64,000 bases of DNA from Planctomycetota bacterium (lineage in GTDB: Bacteria > Planctomycetota > UBA1135): contig JBMYYH010000002.1 in the NCBI GenBank assembly GCA_049609225.1, positions 3,368-67,367 on the forward strand, written 5' to 3'. Below are positions 25,756 to 56,640 of the stretch, piece after piece; the stretch's first letter is position 1; the number at the start of each line of letters is the position of its first letter. The notes below the pieces were generated by a model. It was not told where the DNA came from and searched no databases. It saw nothing but the letters and a program-made list of their open reading frames with translations. The position numbers and the translations under genes are program-made.

Positions 25756-26604
25756 CTAGTGGTGATCGTGACCACCGCCGGAGGCAGATACCATTCCCGT
25801 GGCCTTGGCCTGCGCGGCGTACCACTTAGGAAGGTACTTCCCGGTGTCACGGACGAACATCACAGCTGCCTTTTCACTGCAGAGGTAATAGCGTTTGGCA
25901 CCGAGAGTCACTGGATAGGCCTTGCTCCCGTCCATGCCGGGCATGAGCGGGCAGATCATGGTTGCAGGCTCCAGAACCACTTTAGCCTCTTCCATCTTTG
26001 TGAAGAATGCTGCGGGTTCCGCGAACCACTTTTTTTCGCACCCCGGACAGCACTGCCCGACGGTCATACCCTCGATGACGAAATCCGCATCAGGGTCAAT
26101 TTCGCCACCGCGAACTGCACACTTCTCTTGGGCAGTTCGTCCTCCGAGGATGTCGAGATACCTCGCCGGATCGGCGGACACCTTTTCCAGGTCCTTGGCA
26201 TCATTGACGTAGATGCGCTTGTTGTAGATCTGGTGGAAGTGCTCCTTCGTCTCAAGCTCTTCCCCGGAGACGGGGTCCATAGTCTGGAGGTTTTCGAGCA
26301 GGATTCCCTGCACGAACATCTCCATCACGACCTGCTCCGGTTTAGCCTTCGCCTTTCGCTTGCACTTCTTGCAGCAGACGTAAATGCGATGCCCCTCATA
26401 GTCGAGGTAGGTCTCACGGTCCTCCAATTCCTCACCCGAAATGGGGCAAGTGGTTTGGGCACCGAATTTGGTCGGCATGACGAGCTTGGCTTTGTCACCT
26501 TTCGCTGGCTTCTGGCCATTTTCGTCGTGACTGCCATGGTCATGTTGTGCTGCTGCGGGCAAGGCCAGCAGGCAGGCGGTCAGGATGGTAAGGATGATTC
26601 TCAT
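25756..26604 (-). CDS. Secreted protein with four YHS/TRASH-like repeats and His-rich termini
   Basis: Signal peptide MRIILTILTACLLALPAAAQ, then HDHGSHD. The four repeats are quoted in the finding for this gene; all four keep the YHS/TRASH spacing, with different Cys retention. C-terminus GGGHDHH. ATGA overlap with the cusA stop. Confidence 0.7.
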   Translation of the reverse strand: MRIILTILTACLLALPAAAQHDHGSHDENGQKPAKGDKAKLVMPTKFGAQTTCPISGEELEDRETYLDYEGHRIYVCCKKCKRKAKAKPEQVVMEMFVQGILLENLQTMDPVSGEELETKEHFHQIYNKRIYVNDAKDLEKVSADPARYLDILGGRTAQEKCAVRGGEIDPDADFVIEGMTVGQCCPGCEKKWFAEPAAFFTKMEEAKVVLEPATMICPLMPGMDGSKAYPVTLGAKRYYLCSEKAAVMFVRDTGKYLPKWYAAQAKATGMVSASGGGHDHH

Positions 26605-29600
26605 GATGATTTCTGGTTAAGAAGACGACGTTCTTCGACGGCGCTGTAGAGGACGGGGACCACGAACATGGTCAACAGGGCGATGCACATGCCCCCGAAG
26701 CTGGGAATGGCCATCGGCACCATGACGTCGGCGCCGCGGCCAGTGGAGGTGAGCACTGGCAACAACGCCAACATGGTGGTTGCTGTCGTCATGAGGCAGG
26801 GACCGACCCTGCGTTTGCCGGCCTCGAGGACGGCGGCACGGACTTCCTCGCGGTCCTTCGGAGTGCGGTTGCGGAAGGACTGCTGGAGGTAGGTCCCCAT
26901 GATCACGCCGTCGTCGGTGGCGATGCCGAACAGGGCGAGGAAGCCGACCCAGACGGCGACCGAGAGATTCAAGGTCTTGACCTGGAACAGGTCGCGCATC
27001 TCGGAACCGAAGATGGAGAAGTCGAGGAACCACTCCTGGCCGTAGAGCCACAACATCAGGAATCCTCCGGACCAGGCCACGAACACGCCGCTGAACACCA
27101 TCAAGGTCGTGAGGAGCGAGCGGAAGTTCAGCTGGAGGATCACGAGGATGAGCAGCAATGCGACCGGCAAGACGATGGCCAAGGTCCGCGAAGCACGCAC
27201 CTGGTTCTCGTAGGTGCCCGCGAAACGGTAGGTGACTCCTTCCGGAAGCATGAGGCTTCCGTCGGCTATCCGCGCATCGAGGATGGCTTGGGCATTCTCG
27301 ACCACGTCGACCTCCGCGAGCTGCGGTTCACGGTCGAACGTGACGTAGGCGGTGAGGAAGGTGTCTTCCGTCTTGATGACCTGCGGCCCGCGTCGATAAC
27401 CGACGTCCGCCACCTGTGCTAGGGGCACATGCCCGCCTTGGGGCAGAGGCAGCCAGAGGGAGCGGAGGTCATCGGTGTCGCCGCGGAGCTCATGCGGGTA
27501 GCGCAGGCGCAGGTTGAAGCGCTCCCTTCCCTCGACCGACTGTGCGATGACCTTGCCGCCGAATGCGGTCATCAGGTGTTCCTGGACCGCGGCGACGGTG
27601 AGGCCGTAACGGGCAGCATCCTCCCGTCGGATTTCAACCTCGAGGTAGGGCTTGCCGATGACCCGGTCGGCGAACACCGTAGCCGGCACCACTCCAGGCA
27701 TCTCCTTCATCGCACCTTCCAGGATCAAGGCAGCCTCCTCCAGACGCTCGAGATCTGGAGCCGCGACCTTGATGCCCATGGGCGCTCGCATGCCGCTCTG
27801 CAGCATCACCAGCCGTGTCTCGATCGGTTGCAGCTTCGGCGCCGAGGTGACCCCGAGGAGCTTGGCCCGTGAGACAACTTCGTTCCAGATGTCGTCTGGG
27901 CTCTGGATCTCGTCGCGCCACAACCGGACCCGCTCGCCTTCCTCATCCAGTCCGAACTCCGGTTTATAGAGGATGACGTTCTCCACCATCGAGATCGGTG
28001 CCGGGTCGAGCGCGGTTTCGGCGCGGCCGATCTTGCCGACCGAGGACTCGATTTCAGGGATGGAGGAAATCGCCTGATCCAGCAATCCCACCATCTCCAC
28101 CGCTTGTTGCATCGATGCATGGGGAGGGGTGGTCGGCATGTAGAGGAAACTGCCCTCGTCTAGAGGCGGCATGAATTCCTTTCCGAAGCCTGGAAGCATC
28201 ACATGTCCTTCCCTCCAGAATGAGGTGCGATAGACGCTGGTCTTCTCCACGCCTACCTTCGCTAGGCCATTCGGGATGAAGCCAAATACTTTGTCGAAGC
28301 CGAGCCATGCGCTGGAGCCAAACAGGGCGAGAGCGATCGGGAGGCTCAGGAATAGCAGCTTGTGGCGGAGACACCAGGCGAGGATCCACGCATAGCAGCG
28401 GTGGAACACCCAGAACAAAAGCAACAGGCTGCCAATGAGGAGCGCCACGAAGAGGAAATTGGTGAAATCCCGGTCGACGCCGAGAGGTTGCCAACGGCCA
28501 CTGAGGGTCAAGGCCAGGAAGACCGCGGCGCCGAGCACCAATGCGAGGTGGGGGAGGCCCGCCGCCTTGCCGAGTTTCTCACTGATCCTGTTGGTGAGGG
28601 TTTGCCACGGTGCACCCTTTTCATTGCGGTTGCGGAAAAACATCATCGCAAGCGTGGGGATCATCAAGAGGGCGACCACGATGCTTGCCACAAGGGTGAA
28701 GGTCTTGGTGAAGGCGAGAGGCTTGAACAGCTTGCCTTCCGCGCCGGTCATCACGAACACCGGAAGGAATCCGATGATGGTGGTTAGGACGGCGGTCATC
28801 ACCGCACCACCAACCTCGGTAGCGGCCTGGTGCACCGAACGGAACCGGGATTCCCCATCCGGTGCGCTCTGCAATCGCTGCAGGATGTTCTCGCTCAGGA
28901 CGATCCCCATGTCGGCGATAGTTCCGATTGCGATAGCGATGCCGGACAAGGCCACGATGTTGGCCTCAATTTCGAAGACCTTCATCAGGACAAAGGCACC
29001 GAAGACGGTGACGGGCAAGGTCAGCGCGACCAGGAAGGCAGCGCGCATCTTCCACAGCATCAGCAGGATGACGATCATGGTCACTAGGACCTGAAGCACC
29101 AGGGCCTCCTCCAGGGTGCCGAGGGTCTCGTGAATCAGCCCGGTGCGGTCGTAGAAGGGCACGATCGTCACTTGGCTGATTGAGCCATCCGCCATTGTCC
29201 GGCGTGGCAGACTCGGCGCGATGCGCGTGATCTCCTCCTTGACCCGGTCGAGTACCTCCAGCGGATTGGTGCCGTAACGGACCGTCACTACGCCGCCGAC
29301 AACCTCATGGCCGTCCTTGTCTAGGGCGCCGCGACGAGGCGCTGGCCCGAGCGTCACGTGAGCGACGTCTTGTACCCTCAAGGGGGTGCCGTCGCGGGCA
29401 CGGATGGGGGAGGAAGCAATGTCGGCAGGATCGTCGATCCAACCCTTGCCGCGCAGAATGTATTCGACGCGGTTGAACTCAAGTACGCCGGCGCCGGTCT
29501 CCATGTTGGCGCCACGGACGGCGGCCTGGACTTCCTTGAGGTCGACATTGAAGGCATGCAGGGCGTCGGGATCGACCTCGACCACGTATTCCCGTTCGAA

Positions 29601-30209
29601 TCCGCCGATGCTCGCTACTTCGCTGACACCGTCGACGGCAGTCAGGGCATAGCGCACGGTCCAATCCTGGATCGCCCGCAATTCATCGAGGTCGAAGCCG
29701 CCACTGGCGTTCCCTTCCGCGTCGCGGCCTTCGAGGGTATACCAGAAGACCTGGCCTAAGCCTGTGGAATCTGGGCCGAGCGCGGGCTGGACATCTCCCG
29801 GAAGGGTGCCGGCGGGGAGGCTGTTGAGCTTCTCAAGGATGCGCGAACGCGCCCAATAGAAATCGATGTCCTCATTGAAGATGATGTAAATCGAACTGAA
29901 TCCAAAGATGCTGTTCGAGCGGATAGTCTTAACGCCGGGCACGCCGAGCAGGGCGACGGTAAGCGGGTAGGTGACCTGATCCTCCACGTCGCGCGGCGAG
30001 TTTCCTGGCCAGGCTGTGAAGACGATCTGTTGGTTCTCACCGAGATCGGGGATGGCGTCGGCCGCGACGGGGAAACGGGGCAGACGGCCTTCGCCTTCGG
30101 CACTGCCAAAGGGAGAGACCATCAGGCCGCCGAACACGATACCGACCAGCACCATGCAGGTCAGTAGGCGCTCACGCAGGATTAAGGCTAGGAAACGTCC
30201 CATAGTCAA
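26601..30209 (-). CDS. cusA: Heavy-metal (Cu/Ag type) RND efflux permease
   Basis: 1202-aa RND permease. LDEGSFLYMPTTPP matches the CusA-subgroup signature (EG.LLYMP). Extra hydrophobic segments between canonical TM6 and TM7. Confidence 0.9.
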   Translation of the reverse strand: MTMGRFLALILRERLLTCMVLVGIVFGGLMVSPFGSAEGEGRLPRFPVAADAIPDLGENQQIVFTAWPGNSPRDVEDQVTYPLTVALLGVPGVKTIRSNSIFGFSSIYIIFNEDIDFYWARSRILEKLNSLPAGTLPGDVQPALGPDSTGLGQVFWYTLEGRDAEGNASGGFDLDELRAIQDWTVRYALTAVDGVSEVASIGGFEREYVVEVDPDALHAFNVDLKEVQAAVRGANMETGAGVLEFNRVEYILRGKGWIDDPADIASSPIRARDGTPLRVQDVAHVTLGPAPRRGALDKDGHEVVGGVVTVRYGTNPLEVLDRVKEEITRIAPSLPRRTMADGSISQVTIVPFYDRTGLIHETLGTLEEALVLQVLVTMIVILLMLWKMRAAFLVALTLPVTVFGAFVLMKVFEIEANIVALSGIAIAIGTIADMGIVLSENILQRLQSAPDGESRFRSVHQAATEVGGAVMTAVLTTIIGFLPVFVMTGAEGKLFKPLAFTKTFTLVASIVVALLMIPTLAMMFFRNRNEKGAPWQTLTNRISEKLGKAAGLPHLALVLGAAVFLALTLSGRWQPLGVDRDFTNFLFVALLIGSLLLLFWVFHRCYAWILAWCLRHKLLFLSLPIALALFGSSAWLGFDKVFGFIPNGLAKVGVEKTSVYRTSFWREGHVMLPGFGKEFMPPLDEGSFLYMPTTPPHASMQQAVEMVGLLDQAISSIPEIESSVGKIGRAETALDPAPISMVENVILYKPEFGLDEEGERVRLWRDEIQSPDDIWNEVVSRAKLLGVTSAPKLQPIETRLVMLQSGMRAPMGIKVAAPDLERLEEAALILEGAMKEMPGVVPATVFADRVIGKPYLEVEIRREDAARYGLTVAAVQEHLMTAFGGKVIAQSVEGRERFNLRLRYPHELRGDTDDLRSLWLPLPQGGHVPLAQVADVGYRRGPQVIKTEDTFLTAYVTFDREPQLAEVDVVENAQAILDARIADGSLMLPEGVTYRFAGTYENQVRASRTLAIVLPVALLLILVILQLNFRSLLTTLMVFSGVFVAWSGGFLMLWLYGQEWFLDFSIFGSEMRDLFQVKTLNLSVAVWVGFLALFGIATDDGVIMGTYLQQSFRNRTPKDREEVRAAVLEAGKRRVGPCLMTTATTMLALLPVLTSTGRGADVMVPMAIPSFGGMCIALLTMFVVPVLYSAVEERRLLNQKSS

Positions 30210-30212
30210 TTC

Positions 30213-32216
30213 CTAGTGACCCTCATGGCTGGGGATTATGCGCTTCTCGCTGCCGCACTTGAGCATGCCCGATCCGTAGTAGGGATTACGGACGCCATCG
30301 CCGGCGAAGTCGATCCAATCGCCGCCGTCTTCCAGAGCCATGGGGCAGTGGTAGATAGCCATCGGGCGCTCCGTGCCGAGGTAGCCATAGGTGCTCGCCA
30401 ATTCGACCATCGGTTTTTGCAGGTGCTGGAATGCGATGCGGAAGGTCTCGAGTTGCTCGACGTCCTGCAACTCATGGATCGCGTGCTCCAGGGCGTCAAG
30501 CGGCTCTTGGGCTGAGACCGGTGCGTTTGCGCGGTCCAGGTCCGCTAGAGACTGGGCCAATCCCTTCAGCGCGGACTTGCCGCTAGCAAGGTCGTCACTG
30601 GCGAGGCCTTCTCCGACAGCGGCGAGGTCCTGGAGCAGGGCGCCCAGGCCAGTGCGGAAGCCATCGTCGGCACTCTCCATCGCGAACTCCATCTCATGGG
30701 GATGGTTCGCTACGACGGGGCCTGCGGCACCGCCACCGTGTTGGTGTCCTCCGGCTCCTCCGCCATCGGGGGCCATCATCGAGGTCTTGCCACGCAGCTG
30801 CAGTTCCGAGTCGATGGTGAAGGCACCCCGCGAGACGATGACCTCTCCTTCCTCTAATCCGTCGAGTACCACGAAAGTTTCGCCGGCACGTGGACCGAGG
30901 ACCACGTCGCGAGCTTCATAGAGGTTGGCGCCGTGCTGTTCCCGATCTGGAATCTCGACGAACACGATGGCCCGGTCGCCGGTAAGCAAAGGGGCGGTGA
31001 TGGGGATGAGGAGCGGGTCCTCAAGGTCAGGGTCCTCCTCCAGGAAGCCGAGGCTTTCTGCCGTCTCCAAGGGCATGCCGCAGATGGTGCAGTCGCCTTT
31101 CTCCTCGCTCACGACTTCGGGGTGCATCGGGCACATCCACTTGCCGTTCAGGTCTACGGGTGCCGCGATCCCCGAGCCCAGGACGTCGGTCTCGACGCGG
31201 GCGCGGGCATACATCTCCGGACGCAGACGACCATCCTGGTTGTCGACCTCCACCCGCACGTGCACGGTACGGGTGATGGGGTCGAGGACCGGGTCGAGGA
31301 AACTGATGGTCCCCTCGAAGGTCTCCCCTGGCCAGGCGTCGACCTCGAAGGCGACGACCTGCCCATAGCGGATCCAAGGGAGGTCCGATTCATAGGCATC
31401 CAGCTCCAACCACAGCTGATCAAGGTCCGCGATGGTGTAGAGTGGGTCGCCTTCCTTGACGTATTGTCCTTCGACTGCATTGCGGTGGATGACGGTACCT
31501 CCCATGGGTGCGTTCAGCGTGATTTGCTCGGAAGGTTCACCTATTGCGACGATCTCCTCCATCTGCGCTTCGGTCAATCCGTAGAGCGCGAGTTTCTTGC
31601 GTGCCGCGATGACCGTCGCGTGGGAGATCTTGGCCAGGGATGCGTCGCTGGACGCTCCGAATCGTTTAGCCGATTCGACCGAGACGATGAGCTCTTCTTG
31701 GGCATGGAACAATTGCGGCGAGTAGATTTCAGCTAGGTGATCACCAGCCCGGACCTTGAGGCCGGTGTAATCCACATAGAGGCGGTCCAGTCGTCCACCG
31801 ACATAGGCGGAGAGGGTGGCGATCGCGGTCTCGTCGACTGCCAGCTTGCCAACCAGGCGTACCTGATGGCTTGCCTTCGAGCGTGCCACGACGGAGGTCT
31901 GAATCCCGGCGATAGCCTTCTGACCGTCCGCGAGTCGCAGGGCATGAGGATTCGCCTCGTCGCCTGCGCCTGTTTCCATGGGAACCAAGTCCATGCCGCA
32001 GAGGGGGCAATCGCCTGGCTTCGGTGCCATAACCGAGGGGTGCATGGAGCAAGTCCAGGTAGTCTCCGCCTCCTCTGTGCTTGCTTGCTCTGCTCCAGTG
32101 CTGGCAGATCCGGTGGACTTCTCTACCGGGGTGAAGCAACGGCCGATGATAAGTCCAAGGAAGAGGACCAAGAGGAGGGTCGCTGGCTTGGGTAGGTATG
32201 AAAACAGGTTTTTCAT
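30213..32216 (-). CDS. cusB: RND periplasmic adaptor (CusB type) with added metal-binding modules
   Basis: Membrane-fusion core plus two CP.HP...CP.CGM modules (WTCSMHPSVMAPKPGDCPLCGMDL, WMCPMHPEVVSEEKGDCTICGMPL). DUF3347-like C-terminus YHCPMALEDGGDWIDFAGDGVRNPYYGSGMLKCGSE. Confidence 0.85.
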   Translation of the reverse strand: MKNLFSYLPKPATLLLVLFLGLIIGRCFTPVEKSTGSASTGAEQASTEEAETTWTCSMHPSVMAPKPGDCPLCGMDLVPMETGAGDEANPHALRLADGQKAIAGIQTSVVARSKASHQVRLVGKLAVDETAIATLSAYVGGRLDRLYVDYTGLKVRAGDHLAEIYSPQLFHAQEELIVSVESAKRFGASSDASLAKISHATVIAARKKLALYGLTEAQMEEIVAIGEPSEQITLNAPMGGTVIHRNAVEGQYVKEGDPLYTIADLDQLWLELDAYESDLPWIRYGQVVAFEVDAWPGETFEGTISFLDPVLDPITRTVHVRVEVDNQDGRLRPEMYARARVETDVLGSGIAAPVDLNGKWMCPMHPEVVSEEKGDCTICGMPLETAESLGFLEEDPDLEDPLLIPITAPLLTGDRAIVFVEIPDREQHGANLYEARDVVLGPRAGETFVVLDGLEEGEVIVSRGAFTIDSELQLRGKTSMMAPDGGGAGGHQHGGGAAGPVVANHPHEMEFAMESADDGFRTGLGALLQDLAAVGEGLASDDLASGKSALKGLAQSLADLDRANAPVSAQEPLDALEHAIHELQDVEQLETFRIAFQHLQKPMVELASTYGYLGTERPMAIYHCPMALEDGGDWIDFAGDGVRNPYYGSGMLKCGSEKRIIPSHEGH

Positions 32217-33586
32217 CGTTCCGATTCCTCGGCGATCAATTCATGTGCAGGAAGGAGTCCATTGAGGACTGCGAAGGCCAAGTGGGCGTCTGAAGAGGCG
32301 CGCACTGCGGCGAGGCGGAAATCGAGGATCACGCGTGCGGCGTCCAACATCTCCTGGAATCCGGACTGGCCGGATTGATAGGCGACCAAGGTAGTCTCAT
32401 AGGTCTCCTGACCTTTCGGCAGGAGGCGGTCCCGGTAGAGGGTCATGCGCCTCTCCGCGTCGGCAAGGTCACTGAGCGCCTCATCGAGATCCGCGGTCAG
32501 ACCCCACCGGGTCTCCTCGAGGGAAGCGAGGACCCTCTTTTGGTTCGCCATGGCCTCGCGGCGTGCGGCGTCGATTCGGCCGCGCTGGATCGGAAGCTCC
32601 ACCGCGAGGCTCAGGGAGAAGGCATCGTCGCCGGCATCAGGCGAGACTGCATTCCCTTGCCCAATCCAGGTCCAATCGGCGCCGACGGCGAGATCGGGCC
32701 GGTCTTCCAGTTCCGCTAATTTTCTTTCTGCTTGGCTGGCTCGCATTTCATCTGAAAGCCTAATCATCGCAGGGGAATGGTCTTGGAAACGTGATTTGAG
32801 CAGGTCTGGAGAAGCGAGGTCCGGCACTCCCGGGACCTTTACTCCAGTCCAAATCGCATCCTGAGACATCCTTGAACCTAGAAGTTGCTCCAGTCGAGGG
32901 ATTAAGTTGCTGGTCTTTTGTTGGAGGGTTGCGAGACGATCCTCCATCTCGAGCCTCTCGACCTGGGCGCGAAGTACGTCGGCTTGTGAGACTCGCGAGG
33001 ACTCATAAAGCCTGAGGCTGACGTCCTCGATGTGCTGGAGAAGTACTACCTGGGACTTGGTGATGTCAATGGCCTGTTGCAGGTAAGCCATTTCAGTCCA
33101 GACTTTCAGGAAGGTACTGCGGACCTTAAGTCGTGCTTCCTCGATACCCCAGTGTGCCGCATCGGCCAAGGAAGAAGCCCTGTCGCCAGCGGTTTCGAGC
33201 TTGCCGGGCCAGGGGATGCTCTGGTTGATGCCGACACGACCATCCATGGGGCCGTTGCGGGTCTCAACAGCTTGGAGGTAAGCCCCAAGGCTTAGCCAGG
33301 GATCCGGAAGTGCTGAGGCCTGGTCGACACGGGCGGCCTTTGCTTGCCAAGCATGGACTGCGGACAGGACGCGGGGACTCTCCGCCTGGGCACGTGCTAA
33401 CAGCGTGACTAGCCCCTCTTGTGGGGACCAGGTTGTGGAGGAGACTGAGTGTGAGGGTAGGGCAAGCGTGCCGGCCTGCACCCGGTGCAGGGCATCTCCA
33501 TCTGCAGGTGGAGCAGGGCTTCCAGCTTGGCAGGAGAAGCCAAGCCCGAGCAGTACGATGCCAGCGAATCGAATTTTGGTTTCCAT
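32213..33586 (-). CDS. cusC: TolC-family outer-membrane efflux lipoprotein (CusC type)
   Basis: Lipobox LLGLGFSC and an internally duplicated OEP architecture. ATGA overlap with the cusB start. The track start at 33622 is TTG; ATG 33586 (METKIRF...) preferred. Confidence 0.8.
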   Translation of the reverse strand: METKIRFAGIVLLGLGFSCQAGSPAPPADGDALHRVQAGTLALPSHSVSSTTWSPQEGLVTLLARAQAESPRVLSAVHAWQAKAARVDQASALPDPWLSLGAYLQAVETRNGPMDGRVGINQSIPWPGKLETAGDRASSLADAAHWGIEEARLKVRSTFLKVWTEMAYLQQAIDITKSQVVLLQHIEDVSLRLYESSRVSQADVLRAQVERLEMEDRLATLQQKTSNLIPRLEQLLGSRMSQDAIWTGVKVPGVPDLASPDLLKSRFQDHSPAMIRLSDEMRASQAERKLAELEDRPDLAVGADWTWIGQGNAVSPDAGDDAFSLSLAVELPIQRGRIDAARREAMANQKRVLASLEETRWGLTADLDEALSDLADAERRMTLYRDRLLPKGQETYETTLVAYQSGQSGFQEMLDAARVILDFRLAAVRASSDAHLAFAVLNGLLPAHELIAEESER

Positions 33587-33677
33587 GTTTTCCTCATGGG
33601 TTTGAATGCACAGGTTCCGCAAACGCGGAATGAATCAGACAGTCCTCACGCGGAAGGTGGGACAGCTTTTCTGTGTT

Positions 33678-49416: not shown

Positions 49417-50331
49417 ATGTACCGCCCCCTTCTAACGACTTTCGCCATGCTCCTGGTCGGAGTGGGCGCCTCTTCCAACGCCCATGCACAATCCGGTGGC
49501 GTTGAGACCCTCACGGGAGAGATGCTGTTCTCCGGTGGCAATCGCCTGACCATCAATCATCGCCACACGGAACGTAGTGGTCTGATGATGGGGTCCACCA
49601 GCATTGCCGATCCTGCCAACACCAGCATGACCGAGGACCGCACGACCCTGAGCTTCGATCACGGAATCTCACCGCGTCTCACGCTGACGGCATTGATGCC
49701 TTATGTGCAGAAGACGCGCGAGAGTAGCGGCACCACCTTGTCTTCGGATGGCATCGGCGACCTTGCGATCCTCGCCAAGTTCCTGCTCGGCCATGAGTAT
49801 TGGTCTCGTAGCGGTTGGCATTTGGCCATGGCCGCAGGTGTGGAAGCACCCACAGGCGAAACGGATGTCATGGATGGCGGAAGTCTCTTGAGCCCAGGCA
49901 TGCAGCCCGGTTCTGGTTCGTGGGATCCATTCGTTTCCTTCTCCGCGAACCTGGAGTTGGATCGTTGGCGCTTCGACTTGATCACTCTGTACAAGAACAA
50001 CCGCAAGGGCGATCAGCAATTCGAAGCCGGCGATCAACTTGCCGTCGACCTGGTGGGCGCTTATCGCTTCCAGCATGAGCAGTACCCTGGTCCAAGCGCC
50101 AACGTCAAGCTTGGTTTGCTTTACCGCGATCAAAGCCAAGCTTCCCAGTTTGATGCGCCGATCGCCAACTCCGGCTACGATCGATGGCTGGGCCGCGTGG
50201 CCTTGGCTTGGCATCCACAACCGCAATGGGATCTCTCCTTGAGTGTGGATGTCCCGCTTTCCGAATCCTACGATGGGATTCAACTCGCCTACGACTACTC
50301 GGTTTCCTTGACCGTGGGCATGCGCTTCTGA
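49417..50331 (+). CDS. Outer-membrane channel of the MetA-pathway/transporter-like beta-barrel family
   Basis: Signal peptide, GIGDLAILAKF and GSGSWD motifs, C-terminal ...LTVGMRF. Confidence 0.7.
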   Translation: MYRPLLTTFAMLLVGVGASSNAHAQSGGVETLTGEMLFSGGNRLTINHRHTERSGLMMGSTSIADPANTSMTEDRTTLSFDHGISPRLTLTALMPYVQKTRESSGTTLSSDGIGDLAILAKFLLGHEYWSRSGWHLAMAAGVEAPTGETDVMDGGSLLSPGMQPGSGSWDPFVSFSANLELDRWRFDLITLYKNNRKGDQQFEAGDQLAVDLVGAYRFQHEQYPGPSANVKLGLLYRDQSQASQFDAPIANSGYDRWLGRVALAWHPQPQWDLSLSVDVPLSESYDGIQLAYDYSVSLTVGMRF

Positions 50332-50341
50332 TTCGCAAAAC

Positions 50342-50470
50342 ATGCGTCGTCTTCTCTACCTTCTACCTCTACTGCTTGCCCTGTTCGCAGGTTCCTGCAG
50401 CATCGCTCCCGATACCGCCTGGGACGACGGCGACCCATTCGCCAAGGTCCGCCTCCTGTTCGATAGCTGA
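50342..50470 (+). CDS. 42-codon ORF encoding a lipoprotein-type signal peptide plus 23 residues (see findings)
   Basis: MRRLLYLLPLLLALFAGSCSIAPDTAWDDGDPFAKVRLLFDS, then TGA. It is below the size cutoff of the ORF track and in the same frame as 50501-50842. Confidence 0.4.
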   Translation: MRRLLYLLPLLLALFAGSCSIAPDTAWDDGDPFAKVRLLFDS

Positions 50471-50481
50471 ATATGAAACGA

Positions 50482-50509
50482 TAAGGCCTTCGGACTCGAA
50501 ATGGCCTTA
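50482..50509 (+). promoter_or_regulatory. 11-bp stem-loop 5 nt after the second in-frame TGA, containing the ATG of the next ORF
   Basis: TAAGGCC TTCG [GACT] CGAA (AT) GGCCTTA. The outer 7 bp plus inner 4 bp were verified base by base. The ATG at 50501-50503 lies in the bulge and 3-prime arm. Confidence 0.45.
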
Positions 50510-50842
50510 CGGCGCCAGGCTGGTGCCGACACTGTTTACCTCGACACGGTCGATAGCTACGCGCATTACGCGTTGCAGGATCCGCAGTCGATTGATTTCG
50601 CCGACATCGAAAAGGCTGCCTACGACGCAGCCTACGACATCACGGAGATTCGTCTGGATCTCAAGGGTGAAGTGGTGGAGCATGCTTGCGATTCCTGCAA
50701 TGGGGCGCAGCGTCAGTTCCTACGCATGTCTACGGGGCAGGAATTCGAATTGCGTGGCTCCACGACTGGAGTTGGAACGCAGTCCATCCGCGCAGTGGTC
50801 GTGGATTGGGCGGGGGAGCACCCCCGATTGAGCGTGCAGTAA
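50501..50842 (+). CDS. 113-aa protein without signal peptide, contains CDSC; possibly the body of a gene interrupted by two TGA codons
   Basis: Protein-like composition (Asp/Glu/Tyr/Lys-rich), unlike the Arg/Ser/Pro-rich overlapping ORF 50184-50831. CxxC at HACDSCNG. Confidence 0.55.
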   Translation: MALRRQAGADTVYLDTVDSYAHYALQDPQSIDFADIEKAAYDAAYDITEIRLDLKGEVVEHACDSCNGAQRQFLRMSTGQEFELRGSTTGVGTQSIRAVVVDWAGEHPRLSVQ

Positions 50843-50858
50843 GACTAAGCTGGGGGCG

Positions 50859-52403
50859 ATGAAGACCCCCAGCTTGCTTTGCCTCGCCGGGTTGTGCGTA
50901 TGGAGTTCCTGCGTACAACCTGAGCCGAAACCGGACTCCCTAGAGCCGCTTGATATCCCGTTCGCTCCCTTTGGGGATTACCCATGGATGCATCTGCGTT
51001 TTCATAATGAAGATGCAACGGCTTTCGATGAAAGTTGGGTTTTCGGCGAAGTCACCGGCGTCACTCCTGATCTCTACGACGTCCGCCTCGATCGCACCAC
51101 CTCGACTACCCCCGGTGGAAGCCTGCGCTTTGAGGGTGAACCCGATAGCGCTTACCACACGATGTGGCAGGAGCTCATACTCCCGGAGGAGGGAGCCGCC
51201 TACATGGTGGAGTTGCGCTGGGACCAACTGCTGGAAGACGATTCCGTCATGCCATTGGTTTGGGTACGACTCGATGGGGAGGAAGGCATGATCGGCATGA
51301 CCGACAGTCGATCCCTGGCCAAGACTACGGCCGGTGTCTGGGAGAGCTGCACCCTCCAGGTTGCGGTTCCCATCGAGGCGACCGTTGCGAATGTGGGAGT
51401 GGGCATGATGGGGCAGGGGGTTGTCCGATTCGACCACTTGCGGATGCGGAGTGGGTGGGTAGGCGAACCGGTGCCCGCCAGCGAGGAGGCGCGTGCTTAT
51501 GTGGATACCTTCCTCGAGATCGTCGAAGCCGAAGCCATGATGCGCGACAACGTCGATTGGGTGCAGATGCACAAGGACATGACTTCGCTGATCCAAAGGG
51601 CGGGCACGCCGGCGGATACGTATCCGGCGTTGCAGTTCTGTCTCGAGGCCTTAGGCGATCATCACAGTCGGCTGCTCACTCCGGCTTTTCAGGCCTCGCG
51701 CGGAGGTGGTGAGGAGAAGGAGAAGTCCGCGGAATCGGAACCACCCCAATACTTACTGCCGGTGCAGGAACGTCTTGATGGAGATCTCGGCTATCTCTGG
51801 TTGCCTGGGCATTTGACCTTCGGTGAGGAAGGCCCGCGCGTCTATGCCTCCACGCTTGCCCGCGCCTTGGAAGACCTGCAGGATTGCAAAGGCTTCGTCA
51901 TCGATCTGCGTCAAAACGGCGGCGGCAACATGTGGCCGATGCTTGCAGGACTTGGACCGTTGTTGGGTACGGAAGTCGTCGGCGGATTCCAATATCCAGA
52001 GGGCACTCAAGACACCTGGTGGTATCGCGATGGCGTTTCCGGTCAGGCGGATATCCCTTGCACCGAAGTCGTCCCGCCGCATGGTGCATCCTTTGCGCAA
52101 GACATCCCGATTGCCATCCTGACTTCCCGTAGGACCGGCAGTTCCGGCGAAGCCACCTTGGTCTCCTTCCTTGGACGCCCCAACGTCCGCACCTTCGGTC
52201 AAGCGACGACCGGCCTGTCGACGGGCAACTCCTCAATCCCGCTTTCCGATGGTGCGATGCTGCTGCTCACGACCAGTGTCTATGCGGATCGCAACGGCAA
52301 GCAGTACGGCGGAGTGATTGAACCGGATGTCGCGGTGCCGGCACATGTGGAGGGCGAAGAGGATGCCGCGCTTCAGCAAGCCGTCGACTGGCTCCTGCAA
52401 TAA
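50859..52403 (+). CDS. S41-family (tail-specific/C-terminal processing type) peptidase lipoprotein
   Basis: Lipobox-like CVWSSC. VIDLRQNGGGN and SRRTGSSGE (nucleophile Ser context) are typical of S41. Confidence 0.8.
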   Translation: MKTPSLLCLAGLCVWSSCVQPEPKPDSLEPLDIPFAPFGDYPWMHLRFHNEDATAFDESWVFGEVTGVTPDLYDVRLDRTTSTTPGGSLRFEGEPDSAYHTMWQELILPEEGAAYMVELRWDQLLEDDSVMPLVWVRLDGEEGMIGMTDSRSLAKTTAGVWESCTLQVAVPIEATVANVGVGMMGQGVVRFDHLRMRSGWVGEPVPASEEARAYVDTFLEIVEAEAMMRDNVDWVQMHKDMTSLIQRAGTPADTYPALQFCLEALGDHHSRLLTPAFQASRGGGEEKEKSAESEPPQYLLPVQERLDGDLGYLWLPGHLTFGEEGPRVYASTLARALEDLQDCKGFVIDLRQNGGGNMWPMLAGLGPLLGTEVVGGFQYPEGTQDTWWYRDGVSGQADIPCTEVVPPHGASFAQDIPIAILTSRRTGSSGEATLVSFLGRPNVRTFGQATTGLSTGNSSIPLSDGAMLLLTTSVYADRNGKQYGGVIEPDVAVPAHVEGEEDAALQQAVDWLLQ

Positions 52404-52448: not shown

Positions 52449-53699
52449 TTAGTTGCGGTTCTTCCCTTCGAGTTCCCGCAGTTCTGCAAGTGCATCCATC
52501 ACCAGCTGATCCTCTATGGAGGCGTGAATCACCTGCAGTTCCGATCCCTCCTTCACTTCGATGATGGGGCCCTGCGTTCCGGAGACTAGGTGAGACATCG
52601 TCGTGGAGAACCCAGCAGGCAAGCCCTCCTCGACCAATCCCAGAATGGCATGCAGACGGAATCGGCCAGGTTCTGATACATGATGCTCTAAGCCAGGAGA
52701 GCGGTAGGTCCTTTGTGCCAGGTAGCCAGGCAACCCCGGCCCGTCTTCCGGATCTTCGACCCTCACCAGCAGGGTGGTGATGAAGACCCCCTCGGGAAGC
52801 TCGCGCACCGCATCGATTTCGACGGCCACGGGGATGCCAGGCTCCAAGGTTATTTCCGCTTCCCGCTTCAACTCGTCAATCAAGATCGTTCGATAACCCT
52901 GCACCCACAAGGCAAGCTCGTGCGTGTCTTCTGGATAGGCCACCAACAAGGTGCGGCCAAAGTCAGCGCCCAGGATCGAACCATCTCGATCCACTACGGC
53001 AAATCCTCCATCTTCCTTTCCAATCCCCGAAGCAAGGGTGAAAGTCGTTTGCGCCAACTTCCCATGAAGATCGATGCTGCCAAGGTCGAGACGCCCGCCT
53101 TCTCCTTCCAATTGCAGTTCTTGCCTATGAAGAACGTTTCCTCCGTAGCCCAACCCAATACGAAGGGTGTAGTTTCCGCTGCCGATCCTTTGAAGCGACC
53201 AGGGTTTACCCTTATCCACGAAGTCGGTGCCATTGGAATCCATGGAGAAGCCCAAATCAGGGTCCCGCTTCAACTCGACCCAATATCGCTCCATGTCGAG
53301 ATCCTCTCCCCAGTCCACGGTGCCGGTCACTTCCCAGCCTTGCTCAAGGACCAACTCAATACCCGTCTGGCCGGGTTCGACTTCCAGGAAAGCCACGGCG
53401 TAATCCCGATGATCTGCCTTGAGAACCCAAGGGCCGGCTTCCCCTGGATCTGGAATGGAGAAGTTGCCATCGAAGCCAGCGAAGACGGAATCTTTGCTGC
53501 TGGGAAACGAATAGAAGAGTCGATCTTCATCGTTTGCCGGATCTGGGTTCAAACTCATGATTGCCCCGACGGCCGCTTTGCCAGCGGAATCAACCACTGT
53601 TCCCATGATTGGGCCTTCCTTGCCGGATCCGCCGGAACACGCGATAAGCGTCACCCCGATGCAGGTGGCCGCGGTTAAGTCATGCCATAAACGTGCCAT
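52449..53699 (-). CDS. Lipoprotein with beta-sandwich repeats, MxR(I/L)W family, 416 aa
   Basis: MARLWHDL...LIACSGG. IMGTVVDSAGKAAVGAIMSL carboxypeptidase-regulatory-like motif. LDLGSIDLHGKL motif shared with paralogues. The track start 53702 is TTG; ATG 53699 preferred. Confidence 0.65.
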   Translation of the reverse strand: MARLWHDLTAATCIGVTLIACSGGSGKEGPIMGTVVDSAGKAAVGAIMSLNPDPANDEDRLFYSFPSSKDSVFAGFDGNFSIPDPGEAGPWVLKADHRDYAVAFLEVEPGQTGIELVLEQGWEVTGTVDWGEDLDMERYWVELKRDPDLGFSMDSNGTDFVDKGKPWSLQRIGSGNYTLRIGLGYGGNVLHRQELQLEGEGGRLDLGSIDLHGKLAQTTFTLASGIGKEDGGFAVVDRDGSILGADFGRTLLVAYPEDTHELALWVQGYRTILIDELKREAEITLEPGIPVAVEIDAVRELPEGVFITTLLVRVEDPEDGPGLPGYLAQRTYRSPGLEHHVSEPGRFRLHAILGLVEEGLPAGFSTTMSHLVSGTQGPIIEVKEGSELQVIHASIEDQLVMDALAELRELEGKNRN

Positions 53700-53718
53700 C
53701 AACTTAGTGTACCTGAGA

Positions 53719-54963
53719 TTACTCCGGCCAATCCAAATGCCGCAGCCGTGTGATGGCGCGCCAAACGGTGGATTGGCTCATGGAAATTTGGAATAACTGC
53801 ATCTCTTCGCTCTCTTTCACATGAATGATGGGTGCCTCCGCTTCGGTCGTGACGTATGTGAATGGAAGCAACCTCGGAGAGGTATCGAAATCCTCACTCA
53901 TTTCCATCAGTCTGACCATCACCTGGTACGCGCCTGGCGCGGGAACTTGGAAGTCCGGACCTCCGTAATTGGAGAAGACACGTTTTCCTCGGTGACCGCT
54001 AGGTGTCGCAGGGTCACCCGCTTCAAAGTGATGAAGCAAGGTGATTTCGACGATGATGTCTTCCGGGAAGTTAGGGACTGCGTCAAAAGCGATCTCAATG
54101 GGAATGCCAGGAGTGAGGGATACTTCACGATCTCCGCGGACATCTTCCAACAGAACATCGCGGTACCCATTCATCCAAAGGATCAGGTCCACGGACTCCT
54201 CCGTGAAATAAACCGTGACCTTGCCCTCAAAAGCCCAGGCCATCTGACGCCCCAGTAGATCGACCACTGTCGTCATGGGGGCATCTTCCTCCGTTACCCC
54301 GACCAGGGTCAGAGTGGCGCTGTTGATTTCGCCCCGCAAATCGATATGCCCTAGATCCGAAGAACCTCCACCCGCATCCAATACCAGTTCCCTGGTGTAA
54401 AGAGGATGGCTGTCATGTTCGTGAAGTACCACAAGCTGATAAGTTCCCGGCTCAACCTGCTCGATCCAGAAATCATCCAAGATGGGATCGACCTGAGCAC
54501 GAGGTTGCTCAAAGGAAAGTAACTCACCCTCGCCCTGCATAAGTACCACGAGAAAATACCCAGGGATGGCATCCGTGTCCCAACTCAACTTTCCGGTGAG
54601 TTTCCACGCCGGCTCAAGGATCACCTCCACTCCTGGATCCCCACGCTGCACCGGAATGCGCCCAATGCCTGAATACCCATCATCCACCACAACTCGCAGA
54701 TTCCCATCCACGTCCGGATCTTCGATCAAGAACCTGCCGTCGGCCTGGGTCGTTGCGGAGGCATCGCGCAGGTCTTCCCAGCGCATGGACACAGGGAACA
54801 TCTCTTCCCCATATTCCTTCTCCAAGTGCACCTCCGCACCTGCAATCGGCTTCCCATTCTCATCCAATACCACTCCCGTGATGGGGCCAGGCGCCCCGAA
54901 CCACCAGATGCCGGCGCCGATCGCTCCCACTACCAGAGCAAGCAAAACCCATAAACGAATCAT
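53719..54963 (-). CDS. Membrane-anchored protein with beta-sandwich repeats, MxR(I/L)W family, 414 aa
   Basis: MIRLWVLLALVVGAIGAGIWWF. ITGVVLDENGKPIAGAEVHL and SDLGHIDLRGEI. Colinear with the downstream 416-aa paralogue. Confidence 0.65.
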   Translation of the reverse strand: MIRLWVLLALVVGAIGAGIWWFGAPGPITGVVLDENGKPIAGAEVHLEKEYGEEMFPVSMRWEDLRDASATTQADGRFLIEDPDVDGNLRVVVDDGYSGIGRIPVQRGDPGVEVILEPAWKLTGKLSWDTDAIPGYFLVVLMQGEGELLSFEQPRAQVDPILDDFWIEQVEPGTYQLVVLHEHDSHPLYTRELVLDAGGGSSDLGHIDLRGEINSATLTLVGVTEEDAPMTTVVDLLGRQMAWAFEGKVTVYFTEESVDLILWMNGYRDVLLEDVRGDREVSLTPGIPIEIAFDAVPNFPEDIIVEITLLHHFEAGDPATPSGHRGKRVFSNYGGPDFQVPAPGAYQVMVRLMEMSEDFDTSPRLLPFTYVTTEAEAPIIHVKESEEMQLFQISMSQSTVWRAITRLRHLDWPE

Positions 54964-55015: not shown

Positions 55016-55501
55016 CTACATATGCTTCAGATCCCAGTCGTAATCGATCTCATCGGAGAACGGATCGATACGATCCATCTCCGGAGCACCGTGCGGCTGG
55101 TCCGAGCAGTTACAGGTAAGAGCAGGCTTAGTGCCGTAGGTCTTGTAGCCGTTGGCCACGCCGACCGGAATGCGGATGAGGTTGTAGTTATCCTCGCCGA
55201 GGAAGTGCTCCTCGATCACACCCTTGGAAGGCGAATCCTCACGCAGATCGCACAACACCAACTTGATCATGCCTTGGATCACGGCGTAGTGCTGGGTCTG
55301 CTCGCGATGGATGTGCCAGCCCTTGATCGCGCCAGGCATCGACTGCGAGAAGTAGACCTCACCGAACTTGACGAAGATCGGGCTGTCGCAGCGGAACATG
55401 TGCATGATCATGCCGCGCTCATCACAGATCTTGCGCAGTGGCTGGACATAGACTCCTTCGATCTTGGAGCCTTGGGTGAGTTTCATGACGTCTTCAGTCA
55501 T
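55016..55501 (-). CDS. RmlC-like cupin, dTDP/CDP-4-dehydro-6-deoxysugar 3,5-epimerase family (short form)
   Basis: 161 aa. ...DERGMIMHMFR...GEVYFSQSMPGAIKGWHIHREQTQHYAVIQGMIKLVLCD... matches the RmlC fold pattern. Confidence 0.7.
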   Translation of the reverse strand: MTEDVMKLTQGSKIEGVYVQPLRKICDERGMIMHMFRCDSPIFVKFGEVYFSQSMPGAIKGWHIHREQTQHYAVIQGMIKLVLCDLREDSPSKGVIEEHFLGEDNYNLIRIPVGVANGYKTYGTKPALTCNCSDQPHGAPEMDRIDPFSDEIDYDWDLKHM

Positions 55502-55504
55502 CGC

Positions 55505-56539
55505 TCAGTCTTTCTTGGAGAGTTCGGTGAAGTATTCAGGCAAGGCGCCATCGGCCATCTTGCCTTGGAGGGTGATCAGGCGGGTGTAGCGCCCGTTCTC
55601 GAATTCCGAGGAGAAGCCATCACGCTCCTTGTACTCGGTGTACATGACCGGCACCGCCGAACGGACCGACCACTCGAGCTTGAACTCGGGCAGCTTTTGG
55701 TTCAGCAGGTCGAAGGACACGCGGTAGTTGCGCGGATCCGGCACCGCCTGGTCGGCGATGGTGATCTCGGAACCTTCCACATTCTTGTGGACGATCTCGG
55801 CGACCTCGCAGATCTGGTAGTTGTCCTCGTTGCCACCGACGTTCACGGCCAGGCCGCGCACATCTTCGATCGGGGCTTCGCTCAGGGCCAGGAAGGCACG
55901 CGCGATATCGCGGCAGTGCACAAGCGGGCGCCAGGAGGTTCCATCCGACATCAACTTCACCTCGTTGATGCTCACCGCGAAGGCCAACAGGTTGTTGACA
56001 GCCAGGTCGGTGCGCAGGCGCGGGCTCTGACCGTAGGCGGTGGAGTTGCGCAGGTAGGTGATGGCGAAATCATCGCTTTCGAGCTCCTTCAGCTCGGCTT
56101 CCGCATTCACCTTGGACTCGGCGTAGGCCGAAACCGGAGTGAACTCGGCGCTCTCATCGAGGATCTTGTCGCCGGCGGCGCCGTAGATCGAGCAGGAGCT
56201 GGCGAACAGGAAGCGGGGGACTCCAGCTTCTTTGGCCGCCCGCGCCACATGCATGGTGCCACCCGTGTTGATGTGGTGGGTGATGCGCGGATCGAGATCG
56301 CCCATCGGGTCGTTGGAGATGGCAGCGAGGTGCACCACCGCATCGACACCTTTCAGCATCTCAGGAGTGATGTCGAAGACATCCAAGGTGAGGTCTTCGT
56401 TGGCGACTGCAGGAGTGCCGAACTCGACTCCATCGTAGAGGCCAATATCCACACCCATGACGGTGTGGCCGGCGGCCTGGTAAACGTCGATGGCGTGAGC
56501 GCCGATGTAGCCGCGATGGCCTGTGATGAGGACTTTCAT
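55505..56539 (-). CDS. NAD-dependent sugar epimerase/dehydratase (extended SDR)
   Basis: MKVLITGHRGYIGAH Rossmann motif and YAESK (YxxxK). Start set at ATG 56539, not the 22-codon upstream extension. Confidence 0.8.
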   Translation of the reverse strand: MKVLITGHRGYIGAHAIDVYQAAGHTVMGVDIGLYDGVEFGTPAVANEDLTLDVFDITPEMLKGVDAVVHLAAISNDPMGDLDPRITHHINTGGTMHVARAAKEAGVPRFLFASSCSIYGAAGDKILDESAEFTPVSAYAESKVNAEAELKELESDDFAITYLRNSTAYGQSPRLRTDLAVNNLLAFAVSINEVKLMSDGTSWRPLVHCRDIARAFLALSEAPIEDVRGLAVNVGGNEDNYQICEVAEIVHKNVEGSEITIADQAVPDPRNYRVSFDLLNQKLPEFKLEWSVRSAVPVMYTEYKERDGFSSEFENGRYTRLITLQGKMADGALPEYFTELSKKD

Positions 56540-56640
56540 GATCGAATCTGAAGGGGGAGACTCTGACGGGGGAAGTGCAGATTCTAACCTCTCTTTTTCG
56601 GCCAACTCCGGCTTCCAGGTTAGGATTCCGGCTACCTAAT

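Follow-up and report, generated by a model that had tools for sequence, protein, structure and literature searches.

The window considered here, by which we mean the whole 64-kb stretch of planctomycetal DNA that was analysed, contains at 50342..50842 on the forward (+) strand what we are confident is one gene with recoded UGA codons, and not the two open reading frames (ORFs) into which annotation divides it. The gene consists of 166 codons, 164 of them standard sense codons and 2 of them in-frame UGAs, and it ends in TAA. Comparison with relatives makes it probable that both UGAs are decoded as selenocysteine (Sec, or U in motifs), and the predicted product is a double-selenocysteine lipoprotein with an N-terminal domain like those of the heavy-metal-associated (HMA) metallochaperones, apparently widespread in marine Planctomycetota. 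Most likely this is a selenoprotein family absent from the inventories that we checked, served by the ordinary bacterial mechanism; what sets it apart is that a single residue separates the 2 Sec (U-x-U), that a second hairpin is conserved, and that no cysteine form is found.

The first of the 2 annotated parts, ORF A (50342-50470, +), has its ATG at 50342, begins MRRLLYLLPLLLALFAGSC, and encodes 42 aa; the second, ORF B (50501-50842, +), has its ATG at 50501, encodes 113 aa, and lies in the same frame. At the junction stand UGA-1 (50468..50470, +; residue 43), an ATA isoleucine codon (50471-73, +), UGA-2 (50474..50476, +; residue 45), and then 8 sense codons, AAC GAT AAG GCC TTC GGA CTC GAA, that lead up to the ORF B ATG; both UGAs are predicted selenocysteine codons. 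This arrangement had been described in the original prediction, and its coordinates, the shared frame, the TGA-ATA-TGA, and the 8 spacer codons were all borne out when the sequence was read again. The same is true of the statement that TGA is an ordinary stop codon elsewhere in the window, where it ends 8 of the 27 confidently called genes, including the barrel gene directly upstream; global reassignment of UGA is ruled out on that ground. Three readings had been left side by side: UGA recoding, such as selenocysteine; a recently inactivated lipoprotein gene; and a leader ORF whose termination permits re-initiation at ORF B. Invariant TGAs, a covarying hairpin that fits the model of the bacterial Sec insertion sequence (SECIS), and an HMA-like fold all favour the first.

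One reading frame across both TGA codons

A profile of the region after the second TGA, searched against 1.84 billion representative proteins, matched 117 clusters at 50% identity. About 110 of the 117 cluster representatives start at profile position 1 to 4 with their own first residues, so that truncation at one shared point affects almost the entire family. When the joined product was used as query, all proteins returned had been called at 113 or 102 aa and thus corresponded to ORF B by itself. In every truncated member for which DNA was fetched (L001-L016, L137, and L143-L145, all found by protein similarity only), TGA-NNN-TGA was present. The codon between the 2 TGAs is ATA (Ile) in L145 and in 3 Planctomycetota metagenome-assembled genomes (MAGs) from GTDB (L012-L014), as it is in the window; ATC (Ile) in L015 and L016; GTC (Val, giving U-V-U) in L137; and ACG and ACT (Thr, giving U-T-U) in L143 and L144, respectively. 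At least 35 further members came from a DNA pattern scan of Joint Genome Institute (JGI) metagenomes, their sources being seawater metagenomes; the remaining pattern matches were chance occurrences with no ORF. Across all relatives examined, comprising more than 55 independent contigs and reaching down to ~25-35% protein identity, the frame is open and protein-like through TGA-NNN-TGA, and at every locus aligned this holds over its full length, the signal peptide and both TGAs included. No family member examined has lost either UGA, and the recurrence of TGA-NNN-TGA together with the downstream hairpins in each of these relatives is much more than chance would produce. The original prediction had looked to orthologues for Cys or TGA codons at these 2 sites; TGA is indeed found at both, with coding sequence on either side, but Cys is never found at either.

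The pattern of substitution around the junction is that of coding sequence. In 7 sequences (the window, L001, L003, L004, L006, L009, and L011), changes within the 24 codons that precede UGA-1 affect position 1 in 5 codons, position 2 in 2, and position 3 in 17, and hence ORF A must be translated in this frame under purifying selection. The stretch AGC TGA ATA TGA AAC GAT AAG GCC T … GGCCTTACGGCGCCAGGCTGG is identical in all contigs first aligned, including those whose proteins are ~55% identical, and the codons between UGA-2 and the ORF B ATG encode a conserved peptide, NDKA[FY]GL[ED] (NDKAFGLE in the window).

Only 3 of the 117 are full-length relatives that lack the TGAs, and each is a continuous ORF across the junction, with G-I-S (P0111), P-M-Y (P0108), or unrelated residues (P0112) at the 3 positions. 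P0111 shares a 3.6-kb contig, L137, with a canonical U-V-U member; it is therefore a paralogue and provides a natural control. The order of genes on that contig (210-2770) is the TGA-less G-I-S paralogue, a 138-aa Cys-rich ORF (CC…CPCC, without a Pfam match), a Phenol_MetA_deg barrel gene, and the canonical U-V-U member, a layout which suggests that the lipoprotein gene was duplicated and that one copy lost its Sec codons and hairpins.

Tandem hairpins and the bacterial SECIS model

Hairpin 1 (50482..50509, +), the predicted SECIS element, is made up of an outer helix of 7 pairs (50482-88/50503-09), an inner helix of 4 pairs (50489-92/50497-500), a GACU loop at 50493-96, and an AU bulge at 50501-02 that corresponds to the first 2 bases of the ORF B ATG. 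Folding thus recovers the 11-bp hairpin as originally described, with its GACU loop and with the ORF B ATG in the bulge and 3′ arm. Hairpin 2 (50510..50528, +), which is an addition to that description, adjoins it directly and consists of 8 bp (50510-17 with 50521-28) closed by a GGC loop. The region 50455-50530 folds at -28.7 kcal/mol, compared with -18.7 ± 3.0 for shuffled sequences (z = -3.3), and 1 of 200 shuffles folded as low.

The conservation of this region goes beyond what the protein requires. In the same 7 sequences, not a single nucleotide differs in 14 of the 21 codons that begin with UGA-1, whereas 37 of the next 40 codons, over which the protein is equally conserved, vary at position 3. 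RNA-level constraint therefore overlies the coding sequence, and it does so exactly where a bacterial SECIS element is expected. Both tandem hairpins are formed in 42 of 42 distinct TGA-type members; in the 39 members folded, the 54 nt after UGA-2 have a mean ΔG of -27.8 kcal/mol and a mean z of -4.1. The TGA-less paralogue P0111 encodes a similar peptide (SDQAFGLQETRRRRLGA) but forms no such hairpins (-12.8, z +2.3). When 38 sequences are aligned, 92.6% of cells are paired, against at most 42% in any slid register, and compensatory double changes are seen in 6 of 15 pairs (26 cells), a value reached by 0 of 500 shuffles. Of these pairs, 3 are among the 7 outer pairs of hairpin 1, where 95.5% of cells are paired, and 3 are among the 8 pairs of hairpin 2. 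Examples are AAGGCC/GGCCUU changing to AAGGCU/AGCCUU, AAGGCG/CGCCUU, or AAAGCC/GGCUUU, and GGCGCC/GGCGCC changing to GACGCC/GGCGUC. RNAalifold independently recovers the same helices.

The published model of bacterial SECIS (bSECIS) elements, the consensus of Zhang and Gladyshev as given in PMC13188914 (Fig. 2A), specifies an apical loop of 3-9 nt, an upper stem of 4-16 bp, a UGA-loop distance of 16-37 nt, a G within the first 2 loop positions, and a minimum free energy (MFE) of at most -7.5 kcal/mol. Hairpin 1 of the window starts 11 nt past UGA-1, and its loop lies 22 nt from UGA-1 and 16 nt from UGA-2; the earlier suggestion that these 2 distances are in the range of bacterial SECIS elements agrees with the published model. 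Taken from UGA-1, the loop, stem, spacing (21-24 nt), and MFE of hairpin 1 are within the bSECIS limits in 42 of 42 members, and a G is found in the first 2 loop positions of the MFE fold in 32 of the 42. Hairpin 2 has a G in those positions in all 42.

A predicted lipoprotein with an HMA-like domain and an outer-membrane partner

The gene starts with a predicted lipoprotein signal peptide, MRRLLYLLPLLLALFAGS followed by the lipobox Cys (50342..50398, +; Cys codon at 50396-50398), and the N-terminus in the window, MRR-LLYLLPLLLALF-AGS-C, fits such a signal in having an n-region with K/R, an h-region, and a lipobox. Judged by a PROSITE-style lipobox pattern ([LIVMFWSTAG]2-[LIVMFYSTAGCQ]-[AGS]-C, with a hydrophobic run), 29 of the 37 distinct N-termini in the family pass strictly, and the remainder have near-lipoboxes. 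None of the 37 has Asp at +2, and 21-27 residues lie between the lipobox Cys and the first Sec across the family. The 166-residue precursor would be exported and lipid-anchored at Cys-19, with an N-terminal HMA-type domain presenting Sec-Ile-Sec in its β1-α1 loop and a β-rich CxxC domain after it. In the window, the predicted HMA-like ferredoxin-fold domain occupies 50444..50662 (+), with β1 KVRLLF, the loop DS-U-I-U, α1 NDKAFGLEMALRRQ, and then β2, β3, α2, and β4, and the C-terminal beta-rich domain with CxxC (CDSC, 50687-50698) occupies 50663..50839 (+).

The fold comes from an AlphaFold2 model of the TGA-less relative P0111, built on an 80-sequence family alignment, with a predicted local distance difference test score (pLDDT) of 81.9 and a predicted template modelling score (pTM) of 0.74. 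The model has βαββαβ topology, namely β1 (38-44), a loop, α1 (50-64), β2, β3, α2, and β4, followed by 5 further β-strands; the equivalents of U-x-U, residues 47-49, fall in the β1-α1 loop. Apart from a circularly permuted S6, a Foldseek search of the PDB returned almost only HMA metallochaperones (CsoZ, PacS-N, CopP, MerP, Menkes MNK1, Atx1, CopA, ZntA-N, and HAH1), at target-normalised template modelling (TM) scores of 0.65-0.74, root-mean-square deviations of 2.1-3.0 Å, and a probability of ~1.0, and the top match, CCS, is an HMA domain followed by a β-barrel. In the register shared with HMA proteins, U2 aligns with the leading Cys of the HMA CxxC, and U1 with the GMxC methionine. The resemblance to an HMA domain that had been seen by eye is upheld as to fold and position of the site by the P0111 model and Foldseek, but not as to family membership, since no hidden Markov model match is significant. 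We speak, accordingly, of a predicted HMA-like N-terminal domain whose formal family membership is not established.

The C-terminal CxxC is present in many members and absent in many divergent ones that keep U-x-U (P0075, P0088, P0095, P0114, P0118, P0119, P0121, P0125, P0127, L030, and L127). Those CxxC-less members whose upstream DNA was read, namely L030, L127, P0114 (L145), P0118 (L144), and P0121 (L143), retain the double UGA; for P0075, P0088, P0095, P0119, P0125, and P0127 the double UGA was deduced from truncation at the same point. Because the CxxC is missing from members that keep the double UGA, a four-ligand site of 2 Se and 2 S is not universal, and it is the Sec pair that is the core feature of the family.

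The partner gene, directly upstream at 49417..50331 (+), encodes a 304-aa outer-membrane beta-barrel protein of the Phenol_MetA_deg type (PF13557; Pfam E = 2.7e-12), and in the window it ends in TGA 10 nt before the lipoprotein ATG. A homologous barrel gene stands upstream on the same strand in each of the 36 family loci for which sufficient upstream sequence exists, with 123-179 nt from its end to UGA-1 and a barrel identity of 38-100%, and a PF13557 barrel was also called in L137, L144, and L145. No third conserved neighbour gene was found across the family loci: LysR, DoxX, FMN reductase, and S41 peptidase neighbours are kept in close relatives only, and the neighbours at distant loci are typical of Planctomycetota (sulfatase, DUF1501, methyltransferase, AAA_5, and SMP-30). 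Since the barrel is found in all 36 loci and the other neighbours are not kept, the unit is a two-gene module of outer-membrane barrel and lipoprotein. The product would most likely serve, together with the barrel channel in the envelope of marine Planctomycetota, to bind a soft metal or metalloid with very high affinity through its selenolates. We put this forward as a tentative proposal and would give such binding less than an even chance.

Selenocysteine and the rival readings of the UGA codons

On the established bacterial mechanism, SelB·GTP·Sec-tRNA(Sec) would bind hairpin 1, which would stand at the mRNA entrance while the ribosome holds UGA-1 in the A site, and Sec would be delivered in place of termination by release factor 2 (RF2). 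UGA-2 might then be served either by hairpin 1, at 16 nt, or by the adjacent hairpin 2. The phylum is compatible with such decoding: the named carriers of the family are Planctomycetota MAGs, among them JAJFFC01 (OFTM128), JAQBXR01 (casp150-mb.290), and JASMKM01 (Arabian9_MAG_16), and complete Sec machinery has been documented in some Planctomycetes (PMC4807772).

A number of results count against the Sec reading, or against the HMA-like domain that goes with it. At the RNA level, 10 of the 42 members lack a G in the first 2 loop positions of hairpin 1; the spacing of hairpin 1 from UGA-2 is 15-18 nt, which is borderline and falls within the bSECIS range in 19 of 42; and hairpin 2, at 40-47 nt from the UGAs, is outside the bSECIS spacing. 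An Rfam scan of the window at gathering thresholds gave no SECIS-family match. At the protein level, no Cys-form homologue at the Sec positions occurs among the 117 cluster representatives, which is unusual for selenoproteins, and the fold rests on P0111 and not on the window protein. The Foldseek E-values are weak (0.016-0.12), as is the match of P0108 to TIGR00003 (E 0.012). The family profile finds CopA (E 0.069), CopZ (0.73), and MerP (0.77) among PDB sequences, all in one register and all sub-significant; hhalign against CopZ plus MerP reaches a probability of 49% (P 1.7e-4), below significance; no Pfam family matches the joined product or ORF B at E <=1; and a search of PDB sequences with the joined product likewise identified no family. 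As for the machinery, neither the 64-kb window nor the ~400 kb of related loci yielded a selA, selB, or selD gene or a tRNA-Sec. Scans for tRNAs found none in the window (ARAGORN) and none in 32 related loci, and a screen of 399 kb for SelB and SelD signature motifs gave no match. Ten large window ORFs were considered as possible SelA, SelB, or SelD and rejected, being parts of CusCBA, an amylase, a kinase, an ankyrin protein, and others. Genes for Sec decoding usually lie elsewhere in the genome, and hence their absence from the window and the related loci is uninformative. Cys homologues are usual for a selenoprotein, not obligatory, GrdA being a known selenoprotein with few Cys forms.

The rival that survives best, improbable as we consider it, keeps a single gene but has its UGAs read by a non-Sec tRNA (a near-cognate tRNA-Trp or tRNA-Cys, or a suppressor tRNA) with stimulation by the downstream hairpins. 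It would sit well with several of the points just raised, in that Sec machinery is not demonstrated in these genomes, no Cys homologues mark the 2 positions as Cys/Sec-type, and both hairpin 2 and the UGA-2 spacing misfit the SECIS model. However, it is established that two successive near-cognate events would give a very small yield, and this for a widely conserved protein. Moreover, a functional Trp, Cys, or Gly would be expected to have led to sense codons in place of UGA in some of the 117 clusters, and among the members with DNA read there is no such replacement. Hairpin 1 fits the bSECIS model in position, in size, and in its mostly G-first loop, and the metal-binding loop of an HMA-like fold is where a ligand of the Cys/Sec type would be expected.

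We regard as very unlikely the two-cistron reading, in which the ORF A lipopeptide ends at the tandem UGAs and melting of the hairpin lets re-initiation make a cytosolic 113-aa ORF B protein. This is the leader-ORF proposal of the original prediction, and it draws on 2 observations: in the window hairpin 1 contains the ORF B ATG, within its bulge and 3′ arm, and gene callers annotate the 2 parts separately everywhere. But that ATG is missing in many members, the site reading CAG, CAA, CTA, or AAG in L009-L016 and GAC CAG in the ~55%-identical relatives, and the starts called for ORF B shift among ATG, TTG/CTG at the Leu before RRQ, and GTG at "VYLD". The supposed spacer from UGA-2 to the ATG encodes a conserved peptide, and in the TGA-less relatives the 2 parts are fused in one ORF. 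Strand β1 of the fold is encoded within ORF A, so that ORF B alone would be an incomplete domain, and it would have to work with an outer-membrane partner while lacking a signal peptide itself. Re-initiation after a leader is thus unsupported. The idea of a recently inactivated lipoprotein pseudogene with two nonsense mutations, prompted by the 2 in-frame stops in an otherwise single ORF, can be dismissed, because the same 2 codons are identical stops in over 55 independent contigs, reaching ~25-35% protein identity and belonging to a family of 117 clusters at 50% identity, where the sequence to either side is under purifying selection and the RNA structure is conserved; that identical double nonsense mutations arose independently in all of them is not credible.

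With Sec decoding retained as the favoured reading, a more ambitious version of it can be framed, which we think doubtful but worth stating. The tandem hairpins might constitute a distinct class of SECIS that loads 2 SelB, one per hairpin, and the product might be an obligate diselenolate (U-x-U) receptor without a functional sulfur equivalent, forming with the barrel a new two-component envelope system that captures a soft metal or metalloid (Hg, Cu, Cd, or selenium) at oceanic trace concentrations.

Relation to known selenoproteins and metallochaperones

Like fdhF of E. coli and other bacterial selenoprotein genes of that type, the gene has an in-frame UGA followed by a stem-loop inside the coding sequence, and its database entry is truncated at the UGA. 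Its stem (7-11 bp), its loop (4-8 nt, usually G-first), and its MFE (-10 or lower) are all within the model, and the distance of 11 nt from UGA-1 to the start of hairpin 1 is that of the E. coli fdhF element, in which the hairpin begins 11 nt past the UGA. Unlike those genes, it has 2 UGAs 3 nt apart, a second conserved hairpin outside the usual spacing, and no Cys-form homologues. The nearest known proteins are NF041115 (a predicted UxxU "metal-binding protein"), MbdU (NF045648), and the Sec-containing HMA domains of P-type ATPases. The known double-Sec metal-binding proteins share with this family the replacement of Cys ligands by Sec in a small metal-binding module, here a predicted one, and 2 close Sec that are presumably under one SECIS region. 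Their motifs, however, are UxxU, UxxC, or CU, whereas the motif here is UxU, and the present protein is set further apart by its predicted lipid anchor, by the additional β domain at its C-terminus, and by its obligate pairing with an outer-membrane barrel. Searched with Cys in place of U, the joined product matched 0 families at E <=1 in NCBIfam release 20.0 (June 2026), and it hence belongs to none of the known double-Sec families.

With the HMA (PF00403) metallochaperones MerP, CopZ, Atx1, and CopP the family would share a βαββαβ topology and the placing of a putative ligand pair in the β1-α1 loop. Its α1-β2 sequence, LEKALRRQxGAxxVxLD, resembles the HMA consensus, and MerP is, like the predicted product, periplasmic. 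In contrast to the HMA CxxC, which has 2 residues between its cysteines, there is a single residue between the Sec of U-x-U in the same loop. Further differences from the HMA chaperones are the extra NDKAFG after the ligand pair, the C-terminal domain, the lipid anchor, and the lack of a Pfam match. The upstream gene, through its match to PF13557, resembles the COG4313/Phenol_MetA_deg outer-membrane channels; such a barrel is not known to have been described in a pair with a selenolipoprotein, though no exhaustive search for one was made.

How could a family of this extent have gone unlisted? A review of May 2026 counts 119 families of prokaryotic selenoproteins, all of them carrying a Pfam, NCBIfam, or CDD identifier and none a UxU motif (PMC13188914), and BSepDB holds only previously reported families (PMC13326102). 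The marine Global Ocean Sampling (GOS) survey and similar pipelines depend on pairs of Sec and Cys homologues (PMC2398784; PMC13188914). Such pipelines need a Cys form and none exists here, which would explain why the family has been overlooked; methods of this kind cannot detect it, and this suggests that selenoproteome surveys have a systematic blind spot. If the reading is confirmed, a new selenoprotein family will have been recovered from what annotation now splits into a 42-aa ORF and a "hypothetical protein" of ~113 aa, with 117 clusters affected. The host would be an unusual one for Sec, namely an exported, lipid-anchored protein with an HMA-like domain, whose gene is strictly coupled to that of an outer-membrane channel. 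Through this gene it should be possible to test how 2 UGAs three nucleotides apart are decoded and what role the second conserved hairpin plays, as well as why sulfur cannot replace selenium and how selenolate ligands are used in the envelope of marine Planctomycetota.

Other features of the locus and its relatives

A scan for promoters and terminators gave no signal beyond shuffled expectation. Directly past the lipoprotein stop, at 50847-50875 of the window, lies a further hairpin, AAGCTGGGGG-CGATGAAGA-CCCCCAGCTT, the segment 50841-50890 folding at -21.9 kcal/mol. Its loop holds the ATG (50859) of the downstream S41 peptidase gene, and the hairpin might block initiation there or work as an attenuator.

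When the window was scanned for other same-frame ORF pairs split by TGA, the only case was at 55016-56605 on the reverse (-) strand, and it was rejected as an ordinary pair of adjacent sugar-nucleotide genes. These encode an epimerase (366 aa) and a dTDP-sugar isomerase-like protein (161 aa) with a single TGA between them (...KKD* A MTEDV...); the pair recurs in L006 and L009 and does not involve recoding. Also on the reverse strand, 52449-53702 and 53719-54963 are tandem paralogous genes of ~415 aa, whose counterparts in related loci carry CarboxypepD_reg-like domains.

Two further observations concern metals and metalloids. A CusCBA-type heavy-metal efflux cluster (26601-33622, -) lies ~17 kb from the lipoprotein gene and is not conserved with it; it comprises an outer-membrane factor (32213-33622), a CusB-like fusion protein with 2 HMBD motifs (30213-32216), and a 1202-aa ORF (26601-30209) assumed from its position and size to be a CusA-type resistance-nodulation-division (RND) pump. 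In L144, a low-molecular-weight phosphatase or ArsC-type gene (PF01451; 576-1001) stands just upstream of the barrel-lipoprotein pair, a single instance and as such a hint, from one case, of metalloid handling.

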